54,188 nucleotides of DNA from a virus (Duplodnaviria; Caudoviricetes). Under the pieces are notes generated by a model that saw only the letters and a list, made by a program, of their open reading frames with translations, was not told the DNA's origin and made no database searches. Positions 3,329 to 47,785 of the stretch are shown here, in pieces (position 1 is the first letter of the stretch; every line of letters starts with the position of its first letter). The translations under genes were made by a program, and so were the position numbers. The stretch covers positions 1-54,188 of the IMG/VR virus record IMGVR_UViG_3300034220_000043; one strand, given 5' to 3'.

Positions 3329-3996
3329 AGGCGCTGCTCACTCGGCTCCGCCAGCTCGACGTCGCCGCCGGCGCCGAGCGGCTGGTGCTCGTCGCCGTCC
3401 TGGGCATCGCCGCGCTGGTCTCGTACACCCACCTCCGCGACGTGTGGACCGCGTCCGGGTCGCCGTGGGCCGACGTCGGCCCGCTGCTCGTCGACGGGCT
3501 GTTCGCCGCGGCGTGGCTGCGGATGCGCCGCCGCCGCCGCGAGGGCGTGCCCGTCGGGGGGCTGGCCTGGACCGCGCTCGGGCTGGCGCTGGCGGCGACG
3601 CTGGCGGGCAATCTCGCCGCGCCGTGGGTGCACGGTCGAGAGGACGTGCTGGCGTACGTGGTGGCGGCCTGGCCCGCCGTCGCCTTCGCGTTGGTGTGGG
3701 AGCTGGTGACCGGCCACGGCCGCGCGCCCACCGACGACCCGGCCGAGGAGCCGGACGCTGCCGCGGACGAGCCCGCCCCGCCGCCGCGCCAGCCCGAGGT
3801 GGAGGAGCTGGCGCCCGCGCCGCTGGACGTGGAGAGCTGGGAGGAGAAGCGCGACCGGCTGCTCGACGAGGGCGTCGGCCGGCCGACGCTGAGCCGCGAG
3901 CTGGGCATCAGCGACTACGAGGCCCGCCAGCTCGTCGAGACGCGGAAGCTGCTCGTCACCAGCACCGCCAACGGCCACCAGGTGGCGGGCCCGTGA
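3325..3996 (+). CDS. DUF2637/SpdA-like membrane 'spread' protein with C-terminal HTH
   Basis: AALVSYTHL..PLLVDGL..ATLAGNLA..AAWPAVA..ELV four-TM pattern; GRPTLSRELGISDYEARQL HTH. Confidence 0.75.
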   Translation: MKALLTRLRQLDVAAGAERLVLVAVLGIAALVSYTHLRDVWTASGSPWADVGPLLVDGLFAAAWLRMRRRRREGVPVGGLAWTALGLALAATLAGNLAAPWVHGREDVLAYVVAAWPAVAFALVWELVTGHGRAPTDDPAEEPDAAADEPAPPPRQPEVEELAPAPLDVESWEEKRDRLLDEGVGRPTLSRELGISDYEARQLVETRKLLVTSTANGHQVAGP

Positions 3997-6170
3997 CGCT
4001 GGAGAAGCGCCCGCAGACCGACCTCGTGCCGGTGCAGCAGCCGGTGCAGGAGCGGGTCCGGCAGCACCTCGTCGCGCGCCGGGTCGCGGTCGTCGCCACC
4101 AGTCGCAGGCGGGCGTGGACGGCGTGGCGGGTGGCGCGCCAGCTCCCCGGCACGGCCTGGTGGCTCCTGGTGTACACCCCCCGCGGGGCCTGGCGGCTGC
4201 TGACGGCGTGGGCCCGCTACCTGCGGGATGTCGAGACCAGCGAGCTGCGCAGCCACCACGTCGGGACGCACGAGACCCCGGAGTACGTCCGCGCGTCGAA
4301 GGAGCGCGCGGCGAACCTACGGGCCCGCGCGCTCGGCTCCGCGCTGCTGGTGGCGCCCGGGCTGGTGCTGCTGCTGGCGTGGCTGGCGCCGCAGGTGCTG
4401 GCCTGGCTGGCCGCTGGCGGGGCGCTGGTGCTCGCCGTGAAGGTGCTCCCGCGGAAGGAGTGGTGGGAGATCCTGCTGCCGCCGGCCGCGGCGTACGGGG
4501 CGTGGTGGGTGACGCCCGACCTGGCGGCCCGGGTGCCGCACCCTCCAGGCTGGCTGGTGACGCTGGGCCTCGCGCTGGCGGTGGTGGTGTGCGGCTGGCA
4601 CGGCCGCCAGCTGGAGCGCCCGCTTGTCACCCTGCCGATGCGCGAGCACACCGAGGGGGACCTCCCGGCGAAGCCGACCGCGACGATGGTGGTCGACGCG
4701 CTGTGCCGCGCCGGGATCCCCGGCATGACCCTGCAGCAGGCCGACCGCGTGCACGACGAGACCCGGGTCATCGCGCCTGGCGTCGCCAGCTCGACGCACG
4801 GCTACATCGTCGAGCTGGAGCTGCCGCCTGGCGTGACCGTCGACATGGTGGTGAAGCAGCGCCCCCCGCTCGCCGCCGCGCTGCGCCGCGACCTGTCGAC
4901 GGTGTGGCCGTCCGGCAACCCCGAGCGGCACCCCGGCTACCTGCGCCTGTTCCTGTCGCACAAGCCGATGAACAGGGCGCGGCAGCCCGAGTGGCCGGTC
5001 GCGGTCGGCAAGCCGCTGTCCTACTTCGACGCCTTCCCGATGTTCACCGACGAGCAGCTGCGCTGGGTCGACCTCGTCCTGGCCGGCACGCACATGGCGA
5101 TGGGCGGAGCGTCCGGCTCGGGCAAGTCGGTCGGGCTCCGCCAGTTCGGCGTCGCGCTGGGGTTCGCGCTGGACACCGACATCATCGTGTTCGACGGCAA
5201 GCGCTCCGGGGACCTCAACCCGATCCGCGAGCTGTGCGTCGGCTTCTTCGAGGGCGCCGAGCCGGAGGACGTGCAGGAGCAGCTCGCCTGCCTGCGCTGG
5301 CTGGTCGCCGAGCGGGAGCGCCGCGCCCGGTTCCTGGCGTCGCTGCCGCGCGAGGAGAACCGCCAGTCGAAGGTGACCCGCGAGCTCGCGGCGAAGTACC
5401 CCGACCAGCTCGCGCCGATCGTCGTGCTGTTCGACGAGGTGCAGGAGTACACGGAGTACGGCATCAAGGGGAACAAGACCGAGAAGAAGATCCGCGACGA
5501 GTTCGTCGCGCTGCTGACCAAGCTGGCCCGCCTCGCCCGCGCGGCCGGCATCAGCCTGGTGTTCGTCTCGCAGAAGCCCGACGCCTCCGTGCTCCCCTCG
5601 GCGATCATGGGCAACTGCGGGATCCGCGTGGCGTTCCGGGTGCTGGAGCAGGTGCACAACGACCAGATCCTCGGCACGAGCGCCAGGAAGAACGGCGTCG
5701 ACGCGACCATGTTCACGCTGCAGGACCGCGGCATCGCCTGGGTCCGAGGCGGCGAGTCGGCCGACACGATGGTCGCGCGCACCTGGTCGCCGATGATCGA
5801 CCTCGACCTCGCCGACGAGCTGGCCGCCAAGGCGTACGCGCTGCGCAAGGCGGCCGGTCGTCTGCCCGCGTCGGACGACGTCGTCGACGCCATCGTGGTG
5901 CTCGACGAGGTGGTCGACTGCACTCGCGTGCTGATCCAGTGGGACCGCGACCGTGCGCACCTCAGCGAGCTGGCCGGGTGGCTCGCCGACGCGAAGCCCG
6001 ACTACGCGGGGCTCGACGCGGCCGAGCTGGGGAAGCGGCTGCGCAACCGCGGCGTCGCCGTCCGGCAGGTCCGTGTTGCCGAGCGCGTGACGGCCGGCGT
6101 CCGGCTGGTCGACCTGCAGGAACGCGGCGCGGACGCGGTGCTCGATCTCGACAACAGCGACGAGGAGTGA
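3993..6170 (+). CDS. traB: FtsK/SpoIIIE-family DNA translocase, TraB-like conjugative transfer protein (725 aa)
   Basis: N-terminal TM helices, Walker A GGASGSGKS, DGK, Walker B VVLFDEVQE, ARAAGI..SQKP, C-terminal wHTH-like region; context with the spd-like gene. Confidence 0.8.
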   Translation: MTLEKRPQTDLVPVQQPVQERVRQHLVARRVAVVATSRRRAWTAWRVARQLPGTAWWLLVYTPRGAWRLLTAWARYLRDVETSELRSHHVGTHETPEYVRASKERAANLRARALGSALLVAPGLVLLLAWLAPQVLAWLAAGGALVLAVKVLPRKEWWEILLPPAAAYGAWWVTPDLAARVPHPPGWLVTLGLALAVVVCGWHGRQLERPLVTLPMREHTEGDLPAKPTATMVVDALCRAGIPGMTLQQADRVHDETRVIAPGVASSTHGYIVELELPPGVTVDMVVKQRPPLAAALRRDLSTVWPSGNPERHPGYLRLFLSHKPMNRARQPEWPVAVGKPLSYFDAFPMFTDEQLRWVDLVLAGTHMAMGGASGSGKSVGLRQFGVALGFALDTDIIVFDGKRSGDLNPIRELCVGFFEGAEPEDVQEQLACLRWLVAERERRARFLASLPREENRQSKVTRELAAKYPDQLAPIVVLFDEVQEYTEYGIKGNKTEKKIRDEFVALLTKLARLARAAGISLVFVSQKPDASVLPSAIMGNCGIRVAFRVLEQVHNDQILGTSARKNGVDATMFTLQDRGIAWVRGGESADTMVARTWSPMIDLDLADELAAKAYALRKAAGRLPASDDVVDAIVVLDEVVDCTRVLIQWDRDRAHLSELAGWLADAKPDYAGLDAAELGKRLRNRGVAVRQVRVAERVTAGVRLVDLQERGADAVLDLDNSDEE

Positions 6171-36100: not shown

Positions 36101-38015
36101 GCGCGAAGACGATGCTGGCGTGGCCCTCGCCGCTGCCGAGGAGGCGGTGGTCGGCGGCGTGGGCGTAGGACCCGAGCACCTCCATGATCAGCGTGATGAG
36201 CGAGGTCTTCCCGGTGCCGCCCTCGCCGAACAGGATGGGCAGCGCGGCGTCGGCGTAGCCGGTGGTGGCGATGGACAGCACGCGCAGCGCCCAGGCGCGG
36301 ACCTCGGGGTCGGGCCACACCGCGGCGAGGAAGGCGTCCCACAGCGGCGTCGGGACGGGCGCGGGGCCCACGCCGGCGGCGACGAGGTGCGGGCCGTGCG
36401 GGTCGAGGTGCGTGGCGATGGTGGGCACCTCGGCGCTGGCGCGCAGGTCCCACGGCCAGCCGCCGGCCCACAGCACGTCGGGCTCGCGGTCGAGGTCGGC
36501 GATGCGGACGGTGGCGGGGTGGCGGCCGCCGTCGGTGTGTCGGCGCATCGTGGCGGCGACCGCGGCCGCGGGCCCGCTGGTCATCATCCGCAGGCGGCGC
36601 TTGTAGGCGCGCTGCGCCGGGCTGGCGGGCTCGCCCTTGGCCACGGGGGTGGGGTCGCCGTCGGGCATCAGGGCGGCGCACTCCGACACCACCCGCCCGG
36701 CGAGGTCGCCCTCCATCGACCACTGCTCGGCGCCGCGCAGCAGCCACGCGCTCTTGGTGTCGCTGGCGCGGCGGGCCATGTAGAAGCAGCGGCGCAGCAT
36801 CGCGTCGGCGAGCGGGTGGTCGAGGTCGACGCCGGGGTCGAACGCCTCGGTGCCCACGACCTGGGCCCAGGACGGGTCGACGAGCTTGGGCGGCAGCTGC
36901 AGGTGCAGCGGCTCGAAGGGCTCGGGGTCGTCCTCGCCGGCGCGGCGGTCGTCGACCGGGCGGGGGCGGGCGTCGACGGTGACCCCGGTCAGCCCGGCCC
37001 ACCCGGGGCCGCCGGGCAGGGTGCAGGGGTCGGCGAGGTGCTGGACGCCGCCGAGGACGGTGACGGCCTTGCGGGCGCTGGAGAGCAGCATGCGCTCGAA
37101 CTCGGCGTCGCGGGCCTCCCCGGCGGTGACCGCGGCCCACTGGTCGCGCAGGGCGGGCAGCGCGGCGCCGAGGCCGGCGTGGCCCATGGCCGCGGACTGG
37201 ACGAGGCGGTGCGTGCGGGCGGTCATGGCGTCGTGGCGGGCGCCGACGTCGGGGTCGGCCAGCGCGCGGGCGGTGGCGTCCAGGGCGTCGTACATGACCG
37301 AGCAGGCGGGCCGGTCGTCGGCGCTCAGGGCGGCGAGCAGCGCCTCCCCGCTGGCGTGGCTGGCCGAGGCGGGGGCGGCGTCGGTGGCGCCCTCGCGCAG
37401 CCCGTCGACCCAGGCCGGGGGCAGCTCGGGCAGCTCGCCGGGGGTGGGGAGCCGGGTGGCGGGGGCGCCGTCGGGGGCGTACCAGGTGTAGGCGGTGCCG
37501 ACGTCGCCGTGCGGGGAGGGCCAGACCACGGCGTAGCGGTGGTGGCGCTGGATGATCTCGATGTCGGGGCGCAGCACGGTGGCGTAGCGCCCGGCCGGCA
37601 CGCGGTAGAACCGGATGCGGCTGGGGCCCTGCCCGCGGGCGGTGGAGCTCCACGTGGGCGGCAGCAGCCCCCAGCGCGCTTCGGCGGCGGCGAGGGTCTG
37701 GCCGCCGACCTTCACCTTGCCGCTGGGGGTGGTGTAGTCGTCGACGTCGATGCCGACGATCCCGTCGGGCAGCCGCAGCGCGATGGAGTGCCCGGCGTAG
37801 CCGTTGCCGGCCCAGGCGGCGAGCAGCTCGGCCGAGGTGTCCTGGCCTTCCTCGCCGGTGTAGCCGGTGGGCGGCGGGCTCTTGGTCTCGGCGGGCACGG
37901 GCAGCACGGCGGGCCAGCCGGCGTGGTGGTAGAGCGCGGCCGCGGAGGCGAAGACGGGGGGCGCGGTGGTGGTCACGGGCGGCCGCCGAGCGGGCAGGGG
38001 GACTTCATCGTTCAC
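33117..38015 (-). CDS. Multidomain replicase: PrimPol primase + D5/P4-type SF3 helicase + 3'-5' exonuclease + family A DNA polymerase (~1630 aa)
   Basis: GIDVDDY; GEGGTGKTS, SFIDE, LKQLTGG; VDVETSG, YAASDV; TGRMS, PNLQQ, ADFSGVELRV, RYIAKRGVFGRIYG, VHDEL; no internal stop. Confidence 0.9.
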   Translation of the reverse strand: MNDEVPLPARRPPVTTTAPPVFASAAALYHHAGWPAVLPVPAETKSPPPTGYTGEEGQDTSAELLAAWAGNGYAGHSIALRLPDGIVGIDVDDYTTPSGKVKVGGQTLAAAEARWGLLPPTWSSTARGQGPSRIRFYRVPAGRYATVLRPDIEIIQRHHRYAVVWPSPHGDVGTAYTWYAPDGAPATRLPTPGELPELPPAWVDGLREGATDAAPASASHASGEALLAALSADDRPACSVMYDALDATARALADPDVGARHDAMTARTHRLVQSAAMGHAGLGAALPALRDQWAAVTAGEARDAEFERMLLSSARKAVTVLGGVQHLADPCTLPGGPGWAGLTGVTVDARPRPVDDRRAGEDDPEPFEPLHLQLPPKLVDPSWAQVVGTEAFDPGVDLDHPLADAMLRRCFYMARRASDTKSAWLLRGAEQWSMEGDLAGRVVSECAALMPDGDPTPVAKGEPASPAQRAYKRRLRMMTSGPAAAVAATMRRHTDGGRHPATVRIADLDREPDVLWAGGWPWDLRASAEVPTIATHLDPHGPHLVAAGVGPAPVPTPLWDAFLAAVWPDPEVRAWALRVLSIATTGYADAALPILFGEGGTGKTSLITLIMEVLGSYAHAADHRLLGSGEGHASIVFALKGRRLSFIDEAMREGTRNTERLKQLTGGGELTGNAMNQNPITFRPTHTLVLTSNTPPSVSDAAVRRRIRLLPCNGDPAEVRARRQALSGARWAAEAPGVLALLMREAAGWLANPDSALTSAAPLAVQFVMDELVGSQDVLGQWLTESVQPDEHGTRSHQLYVGFRGWCRDAGIRDSSILTETAWGRALNELGFGVLRRRDANYRPLVVRADPGFPQPSTPTPPPAASAPAPGAPSAVPGGSASPFAPRVEGLWGVGGGSIAVPSTTDNTMSPPVFVSPVEGVEGRSRHTVDGEEEQWKNTTHRRAVGANPPTLHTRGEEGENPQVAGAVDGVGGTNPPPRPSTPPTPAPEKAITPRSVSRTEAAARATEAKISKAEARRQLAEEKRLDAIATAQGEVLGLPAVVDRAGNTLPVTPAQAGEVVRAALARSGALTVDVETSGYPVGHADYELRSVQLGDEIAAAVLHPVDHASLVRELLAAAPVLHAHSATADLVPLAHAGLIDAESGWDRMHDTVIPAKLADPQSTGSDPGLKALAGAVLGAASTAPAADAARAALWKAGRWLTSTKVDTPPERSGWAQVATGSTTMLRYAASDVLDTAALARALPRPDAAVYERERLAQRMTARVAHRGVRIDAEHVREMTERHTAGRDAAAARVRALGVENPGSDQQVAEVALQLGAPLPRTATGRPSVAAGVLEPLRGAEGPLGELVGAVLDHRHHDTALGLFLEPYRLLCERGDGRARPTVYTLGTDTGRMSCVRPNLQQLSREGGVRACITADPGQLMIGADFSGVELRVAAALSQDPTLLAFLAEGRDLHGEIARQVWGEGATKANRYIAKRGVFGRIYGGGISTLATQVGVGHDVMQAVIDTLDGLTPGLAAWSASIREAVKRGATQYPSYSGRVIHLPREYPHKGPNYCIQGTARELLVDTLVRWRDTRWGTCTLLPVHDELDVFVPAEDAAEATAELVRCMETELLGVSIVADPSEPSYAWQDSV
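35071..35451. repeat. Iteron-like GTGGAGGGT/ACCCTCCAC cluster around an AT-rich core; putative replication origin
   Basis: Exact copies at 35157, 35247, 35256, 35305, 35346 and 35443; 1-mismatch copies at 35071 and 35106; AT-rich ~35190-35300. Confidence 0.75.
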
Positions 38016-39856
38016 GCACCTGTCGGGGAGCAGGGTTCGGTCAGAGCGGGGCCGGCCTGGTCGGGGAGGTTCAGGCCGAGCCGGTGGGCGATGAGGGGCA
38101 GGTAGGTGGGGTCGCGCTCGATGCCGAAGGCCCAGAAGCCCTCGTCGCGGGCGGCCTGCAGGGTGGTGCCGGAGCCGGCGAACGGGTCGAGTACCACCCC
38201 GCCGGGCGGGGTGACCAGCCGGACGAGCCACCGCATGAGCGCGAGCGGCTTCACGGTGGGGTGCGCGACACCGTCGACCTTCGGGCGTTCGGAGGTGGGG
38301 GCCTTCGCGCAGTAGAAGAACCGCGACGCCCCGCCGGAGTCCGCGCCCCGGGCGGGGACGCACTCGGTCTGCCCGGCGAACGCGCCGTACGCGTCGCGGA
38401 ACTTGTCGCTGCCGCGGCGGGTGGGGTTGGCTCCGCTGGTGAGCGCGCCGGTCTGCGCGTCGAGCTCGGCGGCTGCGTCCTCGTCCAGCACCACGTTCGC
38501 CGGCCACCGGCCCTGCTGAACATGGCCTGCCGTACACTTAGGGCATGCCGTGGATCGATCAGCAGGGGTACGTCCGGATGATCCATCAGGGTCGGGAGAC
38601 GCGAAAGCATCGAGTCGTCGCGGAGCAGATGCTCGGGCGCCCTCTCCTGTCGACGGAGCACGTTCACCATCGGAACGGGACGAAGTCGGACAACCGTCCG
38701 GAGAACCTGGAGATCGTGGATAACCGGTCTCACCTGCGCGAGCACTGGCAGGAAGGGCACTACGACCCGCGGGTGAAGCGTCAGACGAAGCCGGAAGCGA
38801 CGTGCTCAGGCTGCGGTCACTTCGGCCGTCTGCGGGCGAAGGGCATGTGCAGCTCGTGTTACTTCCAGGACTACTACCAGCGGCACCCGGAGAAGTGGGC
38901 GGCGTACCAGGCTCGACGCCGACGCGCGTAGCGTCGATGTTCAGCGCGCCCGTCCCGTGCGCCAGCACCGTCGCCGCCACCGTCCCGCCGCACGGCTTGC
39001 GCGCGACGACGATCGGCTCGTGGCCCGGCTTGAGCGCGGTTCCCCAGCCCTGCCAGCGGACAGCGTCCGGCGTCGATTCGCCGACCCGTTCAAGCCTGTT
39101 TTTCGTGGCGTTCCAACCGTCCCGTCCGTCAGCGCGCATGAATCCGACCCCCTCAGCGGGTCGGGTGGCGAACTCGACGCCCGGGGTGCCCTTGCGCCCG
39201 TTGAGGCGCCACACCTCGACGTCGAGCTCCGGGCCTACGCCTAGAAACTCCCGCAGCCAAGGCCACTTATCCAACGGGGGAACTTGCGAGTTTCGGTCAG
39301 GACTGAACCAATATTGAGACACATTGGCAGTGCCAAAGTGTTCGTCGATTTCACGGCGGCTGCGCCCAGACTGGGCGAGGGCGGCGCGAAGGGCTCGGCA
39401 GACAGTCGCCCTAGGATCGACGTCCTCGGTCCGCAGCTTGTCGATCGCCTTGCCCACATCGAGCGACTTCGGGAAGCCGGAGCCGTACAGCCAGGAGATC
39501 GAGTCGCGGATCTCGAACCCGGCCAGCCGCACCGACAGGCCCATGAGGTCGACGGTGCGGGACCCGGCGAACGCGAGCAGGTGCCCGCCTGGCTTGAGCA
39601 CCCGCAGACACTCGTCCCACACCGCCGGCGGCGGCACGAACCCGTCCCACGCCGCCGACATGAACCCGCGCCCGTCCGGGACGTGCTCCCGGTTGCCGGA
39701 GCACCAGGCGGTGACGGCCTGCGCGATGGCGGCCGGGCGGTGCTCGGCGAGGCCGTAGGGCGGGTCGCACACGATGGCGTCGAACTGCTCGTCGGCGAAG
39801 GTCCGCAGCACGTCGAGGCAGTCGCCGTCGAGCAGCACGGGCAGCGGCGCGGTCAT
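38012..39856 (-). CDS. N6-adenine/N4-cytosine DNA methyltransferase with two internal insertions
   Basis: DPPY, GSGFPKS, WGTALKP, GRWPANV, HPTVKP, DPFAGSGTT. Confidence 0.88.
   Translation of the reverse strand: MTAPLPVLLDGDCLDVLRTFADEQFDAIVCDPPYGLAEHRPAAIAQAVTAWCSGNREHVPDGRGFMSAAWDGFVPPPAVWDECLRVLKPGGHLLAFAGSRTVDLMGLSVRLAGFEIRDSISWLYGSGFPKSLDVGKAIDKLRTEDVDPRATVCRALRAALAQSGRSRREIDEHFGTANVSQYWFSPDRNSQVPPLDKWPWLREFLGVGPELDVEVWRLNGRKGTPGVEFATRPAEGVGFMRADGRDGWNATKNRLERVGESTPDAVRWQGWGTALKPGHEPIVVARKPCGGTVAATVLAHGTGALNIDATRVGVEPGTPPTSPGAAGSSPGSNTSCTCPSPADGRSDRSLSTSLPASSDASPAGRSALPASARAGETGYPRSPGSPDGCPTSSRSDGERAPSTGEGARASAPRRLDAFASPDPDGSSGRTPADRSTACPKCTAGHVQQGRWPANVVLDEDAAAELDAQTGALTSGANPTRRGSDKFRDAYGAFAGQTECVPARGADSGGASRFFYCAKAPTSERPKVDGVAHPTVKPLALMRWLVRLVTPPGGVVLDPFAGSGTTLQAARDEGFWAFGIERDPTYLPLIAHRLGLNLPDQAGPALTEPCSPTGA
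38545..38931 (+). CDS. HNH endonuclease nested antisense inside the methyltransferase
   Basis: GYVR..HRVVAEQMLGRPL..EHVHHRNG.KSDNRPENL..H; C-terminal CxxC..CxxC. Confidence 0.88.
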   Translation: MPWIDQQGYVRMIHQGRETRKHRVVAEQMLGRPLLSTEHVHHRNGTKSDNRPENLEIVDNRSHLREHWQEGHYDPRVKRQTKPEATCSGCGHFGRLRAKGMCSSCYFQDYYQRHPEKWAAYQARRRRA

Positions 39857-40320
39857 CGCGTACCGGCCCGGCGGCTCAGCGGGTCGGGGAGCCCGCAGTC
39901 GGAGGCGGCCGCGAACAGGCTGTGACGCCCGGCGTCGGCGGCGTGCGGCATGCCCTTGACGAGCAGCCCGGCCGCGATGAGGCGGCGGTCGGTCGCCCAC
40001 GGCTTCACCTCGGACGCGGACCGCAGCACGACGCGCATGCCCCGGTCGCCGGCCCAGGCCTGCAGCGCGCCGATGAGGTCGCGGGCGGTGCGGCCGCCGG
40101 CGGGGGTGGAGGAGCGCCCGGCGCGGGGCCCGACGACGAACGCCTCGACGGCCAGCAGCACCTCGGCGGGGTCCTGGGCGCCGAGCAGCATCTCGACGGT
40201 GTCGAGCACCAGCTCGGGGGTGACCTGCGCCAGGGCCGCGGGGCGCCAGGCGTCGAGGTCGATGCGGGCCAGGCCGGTGGTCGAGCCCGGGTCGACGCCG
40301 ATCACGGTGCGGATCTTCAT
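39853..40320 (-). CDS. RuvC-like Holliday junction resolvase
   Basis: VIGVDPGSTTG..VE.F..VK..HAADA. Confidence 0.75.
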   Translation of the reverse strand: MKIRTVIGVDPGSTTGLARIDLDAWRPAALAQVTPELVLDTVEMLLGAQDPAEVLLAVEAFVVGPRAGRSSTPAGGRTARDLIGALQAWAGDRGMRVVLRSASEVKPWATDRRLIAAGLLVKGMPHAADAGRHSLFAAASDCGLPDPLSRRAGTR

Positions 40321-41642
40321 GCCGCCACCGCCAGGCGCTGCGCGAGGTGGCCCAGCAGGTAGCGGAACGCGGCCGCGCCCTGCTGCGGCACGACGCCGTC
40401 GCCGAGCAGCGACAGGGCAGCGTTGCGGTGGCCGTTGGCGCGGGCCGCGAGGTCGGGGACGTCGCACACCCAGCCCTGGGGCAGGCCCATCATCCACTCG
40501 ACGAACGGCGGCGCGAGCTGGAAGCCGCCGCGGGGGCCGAGCTGGGTGGGGGCCGGGGCCTCGCGGTCGAACATGCAGCCCCAGCGGGCGACGGCCTCCG
40601 CGTAGACGCCCCAGTCGGCCGGCGGCGCGGCGGCGACCGCGATCTCGCGGGACCAGTCGCGGAGTCCCTCGCCGGTCAGCCAGCCCCGATCGCCGCCGGC
40701 ATCCGCCTCGCGCGGGGTGGGGATCAGGGTCACGGCAACGTCGCGCAGCCGCGGTCCGTGGTCGTTCCCGCCGTGGGTGCGCCGCTCGGGAACCGCGCGC
40801 ACGCCGCCCTGACCGTCCGTTCGGATCGGCGTAGGCAGTAGCGTCACCGCGGTCTGCAGGTTCAGCCCGCCGTCGCGGCCCGAGGTCCCGGCCCCGGTGG
40901 TCATGGACTGCGTCGGCGTCGGGAGCAGGGTGACGGCCTCGCGCAGCGACATGGGCACGACGGGCTGGGCCCGTACGCCGGCGCGGCTGTCCTGGTGGGT
41001 CGGCGTGGGCAGCAGGGTCAGGTGACCGCGCCCAGCAGGGTGGGGTTGCCCCGGCCGTACGTCATCGATGAGCGCTCGGCGTCGGAGCAGGCCGGCGTCG
41101 GCAGCAGCATCGATGGCGACGACGAAGCACCGGGCCCGCTGGTGGCAGCCCCAGACTCCGGGGTCGGAAGCGCGCTGCACCCGCCAGGACCCCACGTACC
41201 CGAGGGCGGCAAGGCCTCGGACAACTCGGCGAAGCTCACCGTTGCTGGTGATGCGGGCAACGTTCTCGCCGAAGAAGATCCGCGGCCGCGTCTCGGCGAT
41301 GGCGCGGGCGACGTTGGGCCAGAGGGCACGGGGGTCCGCCTCTCCCAGCCGCTTGCCGGCTGAGCTGTGCGGCTGGCACGGCCAGGAGGCGGCCAGCACG
41401 TCGATGGGCTCGAGGCCGGCGGCCTCGGCGGTGACGGGCCCGATCACCGGGAAGGCGCGGGCCATGTTCCCGAGGTTGGGCACGTCGGGGTGGCGGTGGC
41501 GCAGCAGCGCGACGGAGGCGGGCTTGATGTCGGAGTGCCAGGCGAAGCGCACCGACAGGTCGAAGTCGGCGAGCGCCCGGGCGACGGCCATGTCGAGCCC
41601 GCCGGCGCCGGTGAACAGGGACCCGCCGGTCAGCTCGGTCAC
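40317..41642 (-). CDS. DNA cytosine-5 methyltransferase
   Basis: SLFTGAGG, PCQ, ENV, HQRAR, EWMMGLP.GW, LGDGVVP; four TL(L/I)PTP repeats. Confidence 0.88.
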   Translation of the reverse strand: MTELTGGSLFTGAGGLDMAVARALADFDLSVRFAWHSDIKPASVALLRHRHPDVPNLGNMARAFPVIGPVTAEAAGLEPIDVLAASWPCQPHSSAGKRLGEADPRALWPNVARAIAETRPRIFFGENVARITSNGELRRVVRGLAALGYVGSWRVQRASDPGVWGCHQRARCFVVAIDAAADAGLLRRRALIDDVRPGQPHPAGRGHLTLLPTPTHQDSRAGVRAQPVVPMSLREAVTLLPTPTQSMTTGAGTSGRDGGLNLQTAVTLLPTPIRTDGQGGVRAVPERRTHGGNDHGPRLRDVAVTLIPTPREADAGGDRGWLTGEGLRDWSREIAVAAAPPADWGVYAEAVARWGCMFDREAPAPTQLGPRGGFQLAPPFVEWMMGLPQGWVCDVPDLAARANGHRNAALSLLGDGVVPQQGAAAFRYLLGHLAQRLAVAA

Positions 41643-44335: not shown

Positions 44336-45309
44336 GATCCGGCGACGGGCGCGGGCGGGAGCTGCTGCCCGACGAGCCCGGCGAGGAGCTGCTGCTGCGC
44401 GGGGTCCAGCCCCGGCAGCCCGGCCGGGACCTGCGGCACCCCCGCGGGCGGGCCGGCCGGCGGCTGGGCGGGCGCCTGCTGCTGCTGCTGCGGGACCGGC
44501 GGGGCCAGGGGCTGCGGCATCGGCGGCGCGGGCGGCATGGCCTGCTGCGGGGCCTGCTGGGGCGGGGCCGGGGGCTGGTACTGCTGCACCTGCTGGGGCG
44601 GGGCCGGCGGCTGGTACTGCGGCGCCGGGGCCTGGGCCGCGGGGGCCTGCGGCTGCTCCTGCGCGGGGGCCGGGGGTGCGCCTTGGGGCCGCTGGTAGAC
44701 GACCTGGTAGGTCTTCGCCGGGTTCATGCCGACGCCCGCGGGCCGGGTGCCGGTGCAGGTGATCTGGATGACCGCGCCCGCTTCGGGCGGTCCGTCCGGC
44801 GCTCCGGCCGCGCGCATGGCCCGGCCGAGCTCGTCGCGCGCACCCGGCCCGACGTACCACTGGGCGAGCCCGTCGGGCCGGTCCGCGGTGGGCTGCGTCT
44901 GCAGCGGCACCTTGAGGATCATCTTCGGGCGGCCGTCCTTGAAGAACGAGGGCTGGCCGTTCTGCGGGTTGGTCTGCTGCTGCACGTCGGAGTGGGTGAC
45001 CTCGCGGGTCACGATCCCGACGTGGGTGGTGCCCACCTCGAACTTCAGCGCGGCGCCGCCCCCGACGCTGGGCTGGCTGTAGAAGGCGTCGAGGGTGCCG
45101 GCCGCCAGCTCGGGCGCCGGGGGCTGGCCGTAGCCCTGCGGGGCGCCGTACTGCTGCGGCGGGGCCGGGTAGCCGGGCTGGGCCTGCGGGTACTGCGGCG
45201 CCGGGTAGCCCATCGGCGGAGGCTGGTAGCCCATCGGCTGCTGAGGCACGGGCGCGTACTGCGGGGTGCTGGGGAACTGCGGGGGCTGCGTGTACTGAGG
45301 CTGCGTCAT
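44332..45309 (-). CDS. Putative ssDNA-binding protein with Pro/Gln-rich termini
   Basis: Core ALKF..G.V..QQTN..F.DGRPK; location next to the nuclease and helicase. Confidence 0.6.
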   Translation of the reverse strand: MTQPQYTQPPQFPSTPQYAPVPQQPMGYQPPPMGYPAPQYPQAQPGYPAPPQQYGAPQGYGQPPAPELAAGTLDAFYSQPSVGGGAALKFEVGTTHVGIVTREVTHSDVQQQTNPQNGQPSFFKDGRPKMILKVPLQTQPTADRPDGLAQWYVGPGARDELGRAMRAAGAPDGPPEAGAVIQITCTGTRPAGVGMNPAKTYQVVYQRPQGAPPAPAQEQPQAPAAQAPAPQYQPPAPPQQVQQYQPPAPPQQAPQQAMPPAPPMPQPLAPPVPQQQQQAPAQPPAGPPAGVPQVPAGLPGLDPAQQQLLAGLVGQQLPPAPVAGS

Positions 45310-45815
45310 GGTGTGGTGATCTCCGGTTCCAGAATCGAATTCGTTGTCAGGATGTTGAGGAGTGCGAACTCTCCCCACGCTTCGATCGCTGCTGCGTTGT
45401 ATGCAACTGCTGCATCGACTGCGTCGATATACCGCCCCAGCTTGATCTGGCGGTTGTTAATGGTGATGTTGGCTTGCCACTTGCGATTAGTGCGGTCCCA
45501 AGAGACGCCCTTAAAACCCGACGTGTTGTTTCGGGGAATACGACGGTTCGCTTGATTCTGCGAGCGCGTGCTGATGCGCAAGTTGCTGCGCCGGTTGTCG
45601 AGGCCATCGTGGTTGCGGTGATCAACCTGCTGGTCCGGGCCAACTGCGACGAGAAGCTGGTGCAGATAGAGGCTGCGGGGCCGGCTGTAACGAACCGCGT
45701 AGACGCACTTGCGCTTCGTCACGGGGTGCCAGGTAGAGCTGTCGGCCAAGTCCCTATCCGCCGCATCGACGAGCAGTCGGAATCCCCCCGGCAAGTGCTT
45801 CTCGTAGACCTCCAT
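45306..45815 (-). CDS. HNH-AP2 homing endonuclease
   Basis: VDHRNHDGLDNRRSNLR; NTSGFKGVSW..KWQANI..LGRY..AAVAYN..GEFA; low GC. Confidence 0.92.
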   Translation of the reverse strand: MEVYEKHLPGGFRLLVDAADRDLADSSTWHPVTKRKCVYAVRYSRPRSLYLHQLLVAVGPDQQVDHRNHDGLDNRRSNLRISTRSQNQANRRIPRNNTSGFKGVSWDRTNRKWQANITINNRQIKLGRYIDAVDAAVAYNAAAIEAWGEFALLNILTTNSILEPEITTP

Positions 45816-47785
45816 CAGGCCCGCCCTGCGGAGTGGCCGGGGCAGCCGGAGCCGCCGACGCGCGCGGCCTCCGGGCGGAAGAAGGGACAGAACGCGCACG
45901 CCGAGGTGTCAGCGGGCACGTCCATCAGCTGGGCGAGCCCGGCGCTGATGGCCGCCGCCCACTGCTTGCGGTAGGTCAGCTCGGGCACGACGACCTGGTC
46001 GAGCAGCTCGTCGTCGGCGGGGGTGTAGGGGCGCTCCCACACGTAGAGCCCGTCGAGGCTGGCGGCGGTGCGGGGGTAGGCGAGCAGCGCGACCCGCTGC
46101 ACGGGCAGGCCGAGGCGCCGGTAGCCGCGGGCGTAGAGCAGCATCTGCACGACGTAGTGCCGGGGCGGGCCGGCGGCGGAGCGCACCTTCGCCATCGACG
46201 ACTCGCCGAGGATCTTGTGGTCGCCGAGGGTCTGCTCGGCGGCGTCGTACAGGTCGGCGGTGCCGTCGTGCCCGTCGATGGGGGTGACGCGCTGCTCGGG
46301 CACCCAGCGCAGGTGGCCGAGCCGGTCGTTCTCGGCGCGGAACGCCTCCTCCAGCCAGGCGTGCCCGGCGGTGCCGAGGATGGAGGGCCACGGGTCGATG
46401 ACGTGGTTGGTGCGCGGCAGCCCGGCCAGCTTGCCGGCGACCTGGCGGTGGCAGGTGTGCCCGATCTCGGACGGGCCGAGGTGCACCTGCAGCGATCGGG
46501 GCGCGCGCTCGGCGTGGGCGTGGACGACGCGCCGGATCTCGCCGGCGTACCGCGCGGCCCAGGGGGTGTTGCCGTTGAGCTGCACCGCCTTGGCCCCGGC
46601 CATGAAGTCGGCGGGGGACAGGCTCACGGGAGTAGTGCCGGGTTCAGCACCGAGCGCCACAGCTTCGGCGCCAGCGGCGGTGCGTTGCGCGCCTCCTGCC
46701 GGAGCTGCTGTGATGCCGGCGTCGGTGCGGACAGCAGGTCCGTCCGCGGCGGGCAGTACGGCTCCCAGATCACCCGCTCGCCGTACGGGTCCGTCGGATC
46801 CGGGCGCGACACCAGCACCTCGTGCAGGTACGGCCGCTTCTTCGACGGGAACTTCACCGCCCGCGACGACCCGTCGAACAGCAGGACCCACACCGACTCC
46901 GCCACCGGACCCGGGCTCCACACCTCGCCCGTCAACGTCTCGCCGCTCGCCGCTCGGAACTCCACCGCTCAGCCCGCCAGCGCCCGGAGCGTCCAGCTGG
47001 TCGACTGCCGGGCGAACGCCGCGTAGATCGCCGGGTGCTCCGCCTTGCACCTCTTCGAGTCGAACCCCCACTTCGACACCGCCTGCAGCTGCAGCGGCTC
47101 CGTCAGGTGAGGGCTGTTCAGCAGCACCGTCGTGGCCTCCGGGTGCAGGCGCGCTAGCTCCGCCTTGATCCCGTCCTTGATCTCCGTCAGCTCCGCCTCG
47201 GCCTCCGTGGCCTTCGCCTTCGCCGGGCCGTACCGCGCGGTCAGCTGCTCCAGCCGGCTCTCCGGCTCCGGGCGCACCGTCGGGGCCGGGCTCGGCGGCG
47301 GGGGTGCGCTTGCGGCGGGTGCGCTTGGGCTTGACGGGCTGCTCATCGGGGCTGGCCTCCTGGGTGGTCATGGCGTCGATCTGCTGGTGCTCGGTGGGTG
47401 CGGGCTCGCCGGCCTCCCACGCGGCCTGGTCGAGGTCGGCGAGCTCGGCGGTGGACAGGTGCGCGGGCAGCCCGCACCCGGCGTGCACCCAGCGCGGCGC
47501 GGCCGGCGTGCCGGCGTTGGTGAACCCGTCGCCGCGGCGGTCGCCACAGCCGCACAGGGCGGGCGGGCCGGGCTTCTCGATGACCTCGACGCCGTCACTG
47601 GCGTCGGCGACGCGGTCGCAGCACGGCGAGCAGTACGGGTGCGGCACCCCGGCCTCGTCGGCGAAGCCGCTGACGTAGCCGCAGCGCGCCCCGGCCCGCA
47701 CCCCGACGCAGTCCCACGGGGAGCCGCAGACCTGGTCGCGGGAGGCGGTGAAGCGGATGACCCGGACCGTGGTGCTGGTCGTCAT
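45815..47785 (-). CDS. Cas4-like PD-(D/E)XK exonuclease ORF with Cys-rich N-terminus (656 aa); possible internal start at 46627
   Basis: LGPSEIG..C.R, GTAGH, GTADLYD, DHK, Q..LYA, C.FCPF in the C-terminal part; no stop between the ATG at 47785 and 45815. Confidence 0.75.
   Translation of the reverse strand: MTTSTTVRVIRFTASRDQVCGSPWDCVGVRAGARCGYVSGFADEAGVPHPYCSPCCDRVADASDGVEVIEKPGPPALCGCGDRRGDGFTNAGTPAAPRWVHAGCGLPAHLSTAELADLDQAAWEAGEPAPTEHQQIDAMTTQEASPDEQPVKPKRTRRKRTPAAEPGPDGAPGAGEPAGAADRAVRPGEGEGHGGRGGADGDQGRDQGGASAPAPGGHDGAAEQPSPDGAAAAAGGVEVGVRLEEVQGGAPGDLRGVRPAVDQLDAPGAGGLSGGVPSGERRDVDGRGVEPGSGGGVGVGPAVRRVVAGGEVPVEEAAVPARGAGVAPGSDGPVRRAGDLGAVLPAADGPAVRTDAGITAAPAGGAQRTAAGAEAVALGAEPGTTPVSLSPADFMAGAKAVQLNGNTPWAARYAGEIRRVVHAHAERAPRSLQVHLGPSEIGHTCHRQVAGKLAGLPRTNHVIDPWPSILGTAGHAWLEEAFRAENDRLGHLRWVPEQRVTPIDGHDGTADLYDAAEQTLGDHKILGESSMAKVRSAAGPPRHYVVQMLLYARGYRRLGLPVQRVALLAYPRTAASLDGLYVWERPYTPADDELLDQVVVPELTYRKQWAAAISAGLAQLMDVPADTSACAFCPFFRPEAARVGGSGCPGHSAGRA
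46624..46965 (-). CDS. Hypothetical protein nested in an alternate frame of the nuclease ORF
   Basis: Globular-looking sequence, GC3-rich, GTGA overlap with the nuclease-domain start. Confidence 0.6.
   Translation of the reverse strand: MEFRAASGETLTGEVWSPGPVAESVWVLLFDGSSRAVKFPSKKRPYLHEVLVSRPDPTDPYGERVIWEPYCPPRTDLLSAPTPASQQLRQEARNAPPLAPKLWRSVLNPALLP
46969..47346 (-). CDS. Hypothetical protein nested in an alternate frame of the nuclease ORF
   Basis: Coiled coil plus FDSKRCKAEHPAIYAAF; GC3-rich; true start may be downstream. Confidence 0.7.
   Translation of the reverse strand: MSSPSSPSAPAASAPPPPSPAPTVRPEPESRLEQLTARYGPAKAKATEAEAELTEIKDGIKAELARLHPEATTVLLNSPHLTEPLQLQAVSKWGFDSKRCKAEHPAIYAAFARQSTSWTLRALAG

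Follow-up and report, generated by a model that had tools for sequence, protein, structure and literature searches.

A family of phage DNA methyltransferases (methylases) is known as a hotspot of mobile elements, and two articles of one research group have described members which carry an intein, an in-frame LAGLIDADG domain or the so-called ShiLan domain (Gosselin et al. 2023, PMC9957025; Arsenault et al. 2025, PMC11855218). The gene of the ShiLan domain, an HNH endonuclease, shares its strand with the methylase but is read in another frame, while the host frame remains open and is free of intron or intein features (PMC11855218). Here we describe a related arrangement in the virus record IMGVR_UViG_3300034220_000043 (Duplodnaviria; Caudoviricetes) of the IMG/VR database. 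The window analysed is this entire record, 54,188 bp in length and with an estimated completeness of 94%. In the window, an HNH endonuclease gene of 128 amino acids (aa) on the plus strand (38545..38931) lies inside a methylase gene on the minus strand (38012..39856), the frame of which runs through it without a stop. Judging from sequence comparison, the element represents a variant of the published ShiLan insertions of a hidden HNH gene, on the opposite strand and at a new site. We consider it probable that it is an antisense homing HNH cassette of about 0.4 kb which sits in a linker of the methylase, is translated through as part of the host frame and is expressed from a leaderless transcript of its own.

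The window and the ShiLan systems share the same methylase family, and Filuzino gp74 and other methylases carrying the ShiLan domain can be aligned with that of the window. Their HNH_3 endonucleases are related as well, being 41% identical in the full alignment and 44.9% in the region matched by tblastn. A stop-free host frame, the lack of an intron or intein signature, a patchy distribution and an insert predicted to loop out are further common features, and the ShiLan class itself was reproduced in our searches, with Filuzino, ShiLan, Bipolar and others among the matches. However, the ShiLan HNH shares the strand of its host and differs in frame, whereas the HNH of the window is on the plus strand of a minus-strand methylase and, being untranslatable from the methylase mRNA, needs its own promoter. 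The ShiLan site is located between WGTALKP and FEPxVVARKP while the insert of the window is about 35 residues further on, after NIDA(T/C)R; the ShiLan insert is 202 aa long as compared to about 130 aa in the window; and where the window insert has an inverted repeat, the ShiLan element carries its downstream flank a second time, as a degenerate direct copy. The word 'antisense' is absent from the text of both papers, supplements and repository aside, as are terms for the opposite or reverse strand from that of PMC11855218 and 'reverse' from that of PMC9957025, and within the literature searched no paper on an antisense form of the hidden HNH was found.

Other described systems are more distant. 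In Pacc40 gp60, too, a phage methylase has an in-frame disordered insertion with a secondary nuclease-like or DNA-binding open reading frame (ORF) in it, but the two methylases belong to different families, the insertion sites differ and, in the text of the paper, it is described as an alternate ORF with its orientation not discussed (PMC11855218). The in-frame LAGLIDADG insertions (Taj_79 and others) also place a homing-type endonuclease in this methylase without intein or intron; there, as the article text describes it, the endonuclease shares strand and frame with the methylase and is translated as part of it, whereas in the window the in-frame peptide is an unconserved passenger and the other strand encodes the enzyme (PMC9957025). 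Inteins and the endonucleases of group I introns resemble the window in that the conserved host gene harbours a selfish endonuclease and is not destroyed by it. These textbook gene-dwelling homing endonucleases rely on protein or RNA splicing; in the window no splicing element was detected and the avoidance of stops implies a translated insert, so that its endonuclease, if our reading is true, needs neither, and does so on the opposite strand. Free-standing homing endonuclease genes which split their host gene are also known, for example mobE in nrdA of the T4-like phage Aeh1. Like the element of the window they are endonuclease genes with their own expression signals inserted in a coding region, but they cut the host gene into two ORFs, where the window keeps a single through-running ORF. 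Split host forms are present among the relatives of the window as well (Harley gp68/gp70 and loci L026, L077 and L079). In Mycobacterium phage Harley (L001, NC_051665.1) the split methylase consists of gp68 (503 aa) and gp70 (67 aa) with an ORF of 29 aa between them.

A first-pass annotation, made from the letters of the window, had placed a clear 128-aa HNH gene wholly inside the minus-strand methylase, between two conserved blocks and in a variable loop, with a stop-free, Ser/Pro/Gly-rich methylase frame across it and no intein signature. All of these points were confirmed. The longest minus-strand frame of the methylase extends over 38012..40000 and encodes 662 aa from the first in-frame start, a GTG at 40000; its numbering is used here. 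The ATG at 39856 is the likely start because it overlaps the stop of the upstream ORF (ATGA), and gives a beta-class N6/N4 amino-methyltransferase of 614 aa. The minus-strand ORF matches N6_N4_Mtase of Pfam (PF01555, E 1.9e-23) and phrog_67, DNA methyltransferase, of PHROGs (E 5.8e-65). The HNH ORF matches HNH_3 (PF13392) with an E value of 1.5e-11 and 44.2 bits against a curated cut-off of 24.8 (46 bits in a second scan); the HNH_3 core is located at 38602-38736 (+), and its catalytic His/Asn/His columns are conserved, residues H41, H42, N54, H63 and H67 being invariant across five aligned copies.

The HNH ORF covers methylase residues 357-486. According to the alignment, the last conserved methylase residues before the insert are the NIDATR block (residues 354-359; 38924..38941, minus strand) and the first ones after it are the GRWP block (residues 497-500; 38501..38512, minus strand). 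The insert proper, which consists of the HNH cassette and a few residual linker codons, spans 38513..38923, that is, 411 bases or 137 codons between R359 and G497. The TAG stop codon of the HNH gene (38929-38931) falls within the NIDATR codons on the other strand. The methylase register contains 0 stops across the HNH gene, and its peptide is of low complexity, rich in Ser, Pro, Gly and Ala, and ends in HVQQ before GRWP. The linker at this position is variable in length: measured from GTGxxN(I/L/V/M) to GRWP it has 0-59 aa in 81 of 84 related methylase ORFs, while the three with at least 130 aa (L010, L011 and L012) are all HNH carriers. About 30-50 aa separate R and GRWP in insert-free relatives, and about 30 aa in the close ones (L090 and L114). 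The native linker has been almost wholly replaced in the window and in Mycobacterium phage MKC-IRE-02 (L007), and is kept after the cassette in L010 and L011.

An inverted repeat of 16 nucleotides (nt), 81% complementary, surrounds the HNH ORF of the window (38508..38523 / 38937..38952), the outer (right) arm of which is methylase DNA coding for ALNID. Perfect inverted repeats of 9-10 nt can be seen in L010 (2970-2979/3399-3408) and L011 (2969-2977/3419-3427); the repeat search reported no such repeat for L007 or L012.

The composition and evolution of the two strands indicate which of them codes for a conserved protein. The guanine plus cytosine (GC) content near the locus is about 75%, and the GC content at third codon positions (GC3) is 0.83 in the HNH frame and 0.84 and 0.94 in the two methylase flanks, while the methylase frame of the insert has values of 0.66, 0.80 and 0.45 at its first, second and third positions. 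This codon-position pattern points to HNH as the coding sequence of the insert, with the methylase frame riding through it. Over the same aligned DNA of the copies, the ratio of nonsynonymous to synonymous substitution rates (dN/dS) is 0.12-0.25 in the HNH frame at 53-75% amino-acid identity, and 1.1-2.8 in the methylase frame at 23-46% identity. The contrast in dN/dS indicates that the HNH protein is under purifying selection and that the methylase-frame peptide of the insert is free to vary, constrained only against stops. The locus would provide a clean natural case of two-strand selection, for protein sequence on one strand and for stop avoidance alone on the other. The reverse assignment, a functional methylase-frame peptide with HNH as a shadow ORF, was ruled out by GC3 (0.45 against 0.83), the Pfam matches and dN/dS.

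Relatives were gathered by tblastn against cultured phages and by scans with an HNH alignment of IMG/VR (80 loci), genome contigs (55) and metagenome contigs (80), and both halves of the methylase were mapped onto the resulting 215 loci, all of which were found by HNH similarity. These contain 47 nested HNH events, 8 antisense and 39 sense (7 and 32 after dereplication). The host frame is open in all 8 antisense-nested loci (7 dereplicated) and in 36 of the 39 sense-nested ones (30/32 dereplicated). Together with the window, L007 and L225, the 7 dereplicated antisense loci make up ten distinct antisense carriers (window, L007, L010, L011, L012, L225, L226, L228, L230 and L239), and the methylase frame is open in every one of them, which bears out the earlier suggestion that the antisense element keeps its host in frame. 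In this set L239 and L240, being identical, are counted once and L227, cut by a contig end, is left out; L225 was below the E-value limit of the automated tally (C-terminal match) and was added after checking by hand.

Seven of the ten carriers (window, L007, L010, L011, L012, L225 and L226) have the HNH gene at the site of the window, after NIDxxR, and three (L228, L230 and L239) at a second antisense site after GRWPxN. The HNH family of the window therefore occupies two antisense sites plus several sense sites of the methylase. MKC-IRE-02 is a cultured antisense carrier, and its GenBank annotation at the place of the antisense HNH reads 'methyltransferase' only, an example of how annotation pipelines miss such nested genes; MKC-IRE phages are not mentioned in the text of PMC11855218. 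MKC-IRE-02 grows on Mycolicibacterium smegmatis mc2155, which makes the model open to direct testing. The methylase of this phage (L007 768-2321, +) is without about 60-70 residues of a helical region common to the other members (alignment columns 300-400). The 55 loci of the genome-contig scan included no close antisense relative, and pieces of methylase were found around HNH only in L175, in sense orientation. Three IMG/VR loci (L017, L056 and L087) have two sense-nested HNH genes per methylase ORF, with the frame open across both.

The probability that the methylase register is open by chance was estimated by keeping the HNH protein fixed, resampling or permuting its synonymous codons and checking the antisense register for stops. 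Under synonymous permutation the register was open with a probability of 0.17 for the window, 0.076 for L007, 0.093 for L010, 0.021 for L011 and 0.005 for L012; for the others the values were 0.08 (L225), 0.68 (L226), 0.011 (L228), 0.016 (L230) and 0/5000 (L239). With a GC content of 32%, L239 is expected to have 8.2 stops and has 0. The GC content of the ten carriers spans 32% to 65%, the relatives of the window being stop-free at 32-61%. All ten carriers, at both sites, share one register (shift 1), which sets the second codon position of the methylase opposite the third one of HNH. Stops in this register come from NTY or NCT codons which precede a codon starting with A. In the ten carriers, NTY was used 0 times out of 42 before an A-starting codon as compared to 133/217 in other contexts, and NCT 0 times out of 49 as compared to 64/171. 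Avoiding only three codons would suffice in the exactly opposite register (shift 0), which would therefore be the easier one to keep open. Since dS in the HNH frame is >1 in every pair compared, the stop-free state has outlasted the turnover of synonymous sites. Judged from the relatives, the open methylase frame is kept by selection on the codon choice of HNH.

The methylase appears to be intact on either side of the insert. The catalytic motif IV, DPPY (residues 79-82; 39755..39766, minus strand), falls in invariant columns of the alignments, as do the F, G, S and G of motif I, FAGSG (residues 607-611; 38168..38182, minus strand), which binds S-adenosylmethionine; motif IV precedes motif I (FxGxG), the order of the beta class. 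In an alignment of 47 sequences, 50 columns are invariant, those of DPPY and FxGSG among them, and the window methylase conforms to all 50. An AlphaFold2 model generated from this alignment has a mean predicted local distance difference test score (pLDDT) of 69.5 and a predicted template modelling score of 0.63. The blocks beside the insert reach a pLDDT of 89-97 while model residues 320-446 (368-494 in the 662-aa numbering) remain below 50 and are devoid of secondary structure. Foldseek matched the model to M.RsrI, CcrM and M.BceJIV over about 600 alignment columns covering both halves, with a probability of 1.00 to 1nw8, 6pbd and 8urk. The model suggests that the methylase fold is intact and that the insert forms a disordered loop on it, and the insertion site would then mark a loop of beta-class methylases which tolerates about 130 additional residues.

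As HNH is antisense and not translatable from the methylase mRNA, it needs a promoter of its own. The sequence upstream of its ATG is conserved in four high-GC copies at the same site and includes a -10-like TANNNT hexamer at exactly -12..-7 from the A of the ATG. In the window this putative promoter element is TACACT (38533..38538, +). The hexamer occupies this position in 5 of the 7 distinct same-site copies, and L225 and the near-identical L227 have a near-consensus arrangement of TTGACT, 17 nt, TATAAT, 6 nt and ATG. In actinobacterial promoters, such a spacing of the -10 element is the geometry of a leaderless transcript which starts at the A of the ATG. Leaderless initiation has been proposed for the ShiLan HNH in the text of PMC11855218. 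The conserved hexamer suggests that the HNH of the window, too, has a leaderless transcript of its own. How the hidden HNH is expressed was left open in the ShiLan papers, and the antisense orientation settles this question: it excludes frameshifting or internal initiation on the host mRNA, and HNH must therefore be an autonomous cassette.

Taken together, we propose that the cassette has entered a beta-class methylase gene in backward orientation, at the variable linker which joins NIDA(T/C)R to GRWP. The methylase mRNA would be translated across the insert without a break to give a full-length enzyme with a disordered surface loop of about 130 aa, with no splicing of RNA or protein, and HNH would be transcribed from TACACT as a leaderless antisense mRNA. 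In a co-infection the endonuclease would cut insert-free methylase alleles, and repair would copy the cassette into them (homing). Motif I is located downstream of the insert and would be removed by a stop inside it; an open frame would thus preserve motif I and, in this phage, also the translational coupling to the downstream primase/polymerase gene.

Several observations weigh against this proposal. The window alone is compatible with chance, its register being open in 15-34% of the synonymous resamplings (and in 5.5% of shuffles of the codon order), and so is L226; that the openness is more than chance can be seen only through comparison with the relatives, the copies of which share ancestry, which means that the ten P values cannot be taken as independent. 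The host frame is broken in 3/39 sense-nested relatives (L026 and, at their second HNH, L077 and L079), and persistence therefore does not require an open frame. The hexamer at -12 is missing in L012, L226 and the three second-site copies; in L012 and L226 purine-rich stretches precede the ATG by 9-12 nt instead, and hexamers are located further upstream. A simple sigma-70 scan of 38300-39200 gave 0 promoter sites; a single weak terminator-like site was found there on the minus strand. The alignment with insert-free homologues which the first-pass annotation had recommended for defining the junctions located the variable linker, but for want of a closely related insert-free allele it placed the junctions only to within a few codons. 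Contigs of four DNA runs were mapped to 37500-40500; one run is probably the source of the record, and the other three contributed short fragments of identical sequence. None of the contigs joined across the insert, and no empty-site allele was recovered.

Removal of the insert from the mRNA was considered, either as a self-splicing intron with an antisense endonuclease ORF or by another route, with the open frame being incidental. Group I introns bearing endonucleases do exist in actinophages (abstract of PMC3706429), and the text of PMC11855218 leaves splicing of the ShiLan element formally open. However, a cmscan search of 38200-39300 with Rfam (both strands, E up to 10) returned no intron family and three non-intron matches at chance level, and the HNH ORF takes up nearly the whole insert, which leaves no room for an intron core. 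Splicing is also difficult to reconcile with the 10/10 stop-free copies, including the one at 32% GC, since stop avoidance would be pointless, and not under selection, if the insert were removed before translation. We regard such a removal as very unlikely. An intein was ruled out: Pfam found methylase families only and no intein family in the 662-aa ORF, no Hint family was detected, and the peptide of the insert is disordered and non-conserved with dN/dS >1. As far as the sequence tells, the earlier view that no splicing is needed holds, given the lack of an Rfam intron family, the dN/dS of 1.1-2.8 and the disordered model. The same annotation had named a decaying methylase with a frame open by high-GC coincidence as a case which would overturn its reading. 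In this scenario the insertion has killed the methylase and the antisense frame is open by chance, for which the chance values of the window itself (0.15-0.34) and the abundance of long spurious antisense ORFs in this genome of about 75% GC can be cited. It is contradicted by stop-free frames at 32-57% GC and the complete set of invariant columns. The relatives up to 61% GC are open too, with probabilities which in the extreme case fall below 1 in 5000, no motif of the methylase is lost, and a dS >1 in the HNH frame means that openness survived full synonymous turnover; of the alternatives weighed here we find coincidence extremely hard to credit.

Another alternative concerns the gene order. 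The methylase stop overlaps a GTG (GTGA) in the frame of a downstream ORF of 1806 aa with DUF5906, 3'-5' exonuclease and DNA polymerase A domains (primase/PolA), and a C5 cytosine methylase is encoded upstream of the N6/N4 methylase ORF. From the overlaps on both sides and these neighbours, the methylase gene is part of a tightly coupled replication-module operon. The open frame might hence be selected for operon coupling, avoiding Rho-type polarity and securing expression of the primase/polymerase, with the methylase itself impaired or dispensable. The ATGA and GTGA overlaps fit this idea, as does the report that the methylase is not essential in ShiLan relatives (PMC11855218, article text). 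On the other hand, all invariant methylase motifs are kept on either side of the insert and the flanks retain their high GC3, and, judging from an unsystematic look at the loci, the open frame recurs next to different gene neighbours. As a replacement for the linker-cassette explanation, operon coupling seems unlikely to us; the two are in part complementary. It has also to be asked whether HNH is a restriction-like partner nuclease, blocked by methylation, which nesting makes inseparable from its methylase, instead of a homing enzyme. The association of HNH and methylase is strikingly frequent, with 47 nested events in 215 loci, but these loci were found by HNH similarity, and most methylases of the family are without any HNH. 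The presence of HNH at several conserved sites in both orientations is typical of homing, and so is the discordance between the phylogeny of the ShiLan element and that of its host gene reported in the text of PMC9957025. A partner nuclease is thus a highly improbable explanation.

Beyond this locus, we lean slightly towards the more general view that HNH cassettes represent a third way, besides introns and inteins, to inhabit a coding gene: they would bring their own leaderless promoter and, through selection acting on both of their strands, one particular second register that is always stop-free, and could be inserted in either orientation and translated as a harmless loop of the host protein. 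This view implies that the 'ORF-compatible' property resides in the element and not in the host gene, as antisense copies are found at 32-65% GC and at no fewer than two sites.

In addition to the HNH_3 core, the HNH protein of the window has a C-terminal CxxC...CxxC zinc-finger region (residues 80-114; 38782..38886, +), the four cysteines of which are invariant across the five aligned copies. This region is weakly similar to eukaryotic A20-type zinc fingers such as those of Zfand5 and Rabex-5 (E 3.5e-4 to 1e-2), the best match being 2kzy_A (E 3.5e-4). Such a resemblance is unusual for a phage nuclease.

A second insertion of about 300 aa is present in the methylase of L010 (2375-5353, -) between DPPY and FMG..WD, and the host frame is stop-free across it as well. 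It harbours a long antisense ORF (3755-4969, +) with many CxxC pairs and no Pfam match, and may be another antisense endonuclease cassette.

Neither a second copy of the methylase nor a second copy of the antisense HNH was found in the window's own record, and PF01844 was likewise not found there. The window does contain another HNH_3 gene at 45306-45899 (-), with 33.9 bits and thus above the cut-off. It is apparently free-standing in an intergenic position and co-oriented with its neighbours, and its C-terminal half resembles, and may be, an AP2-type DNA-binding region.

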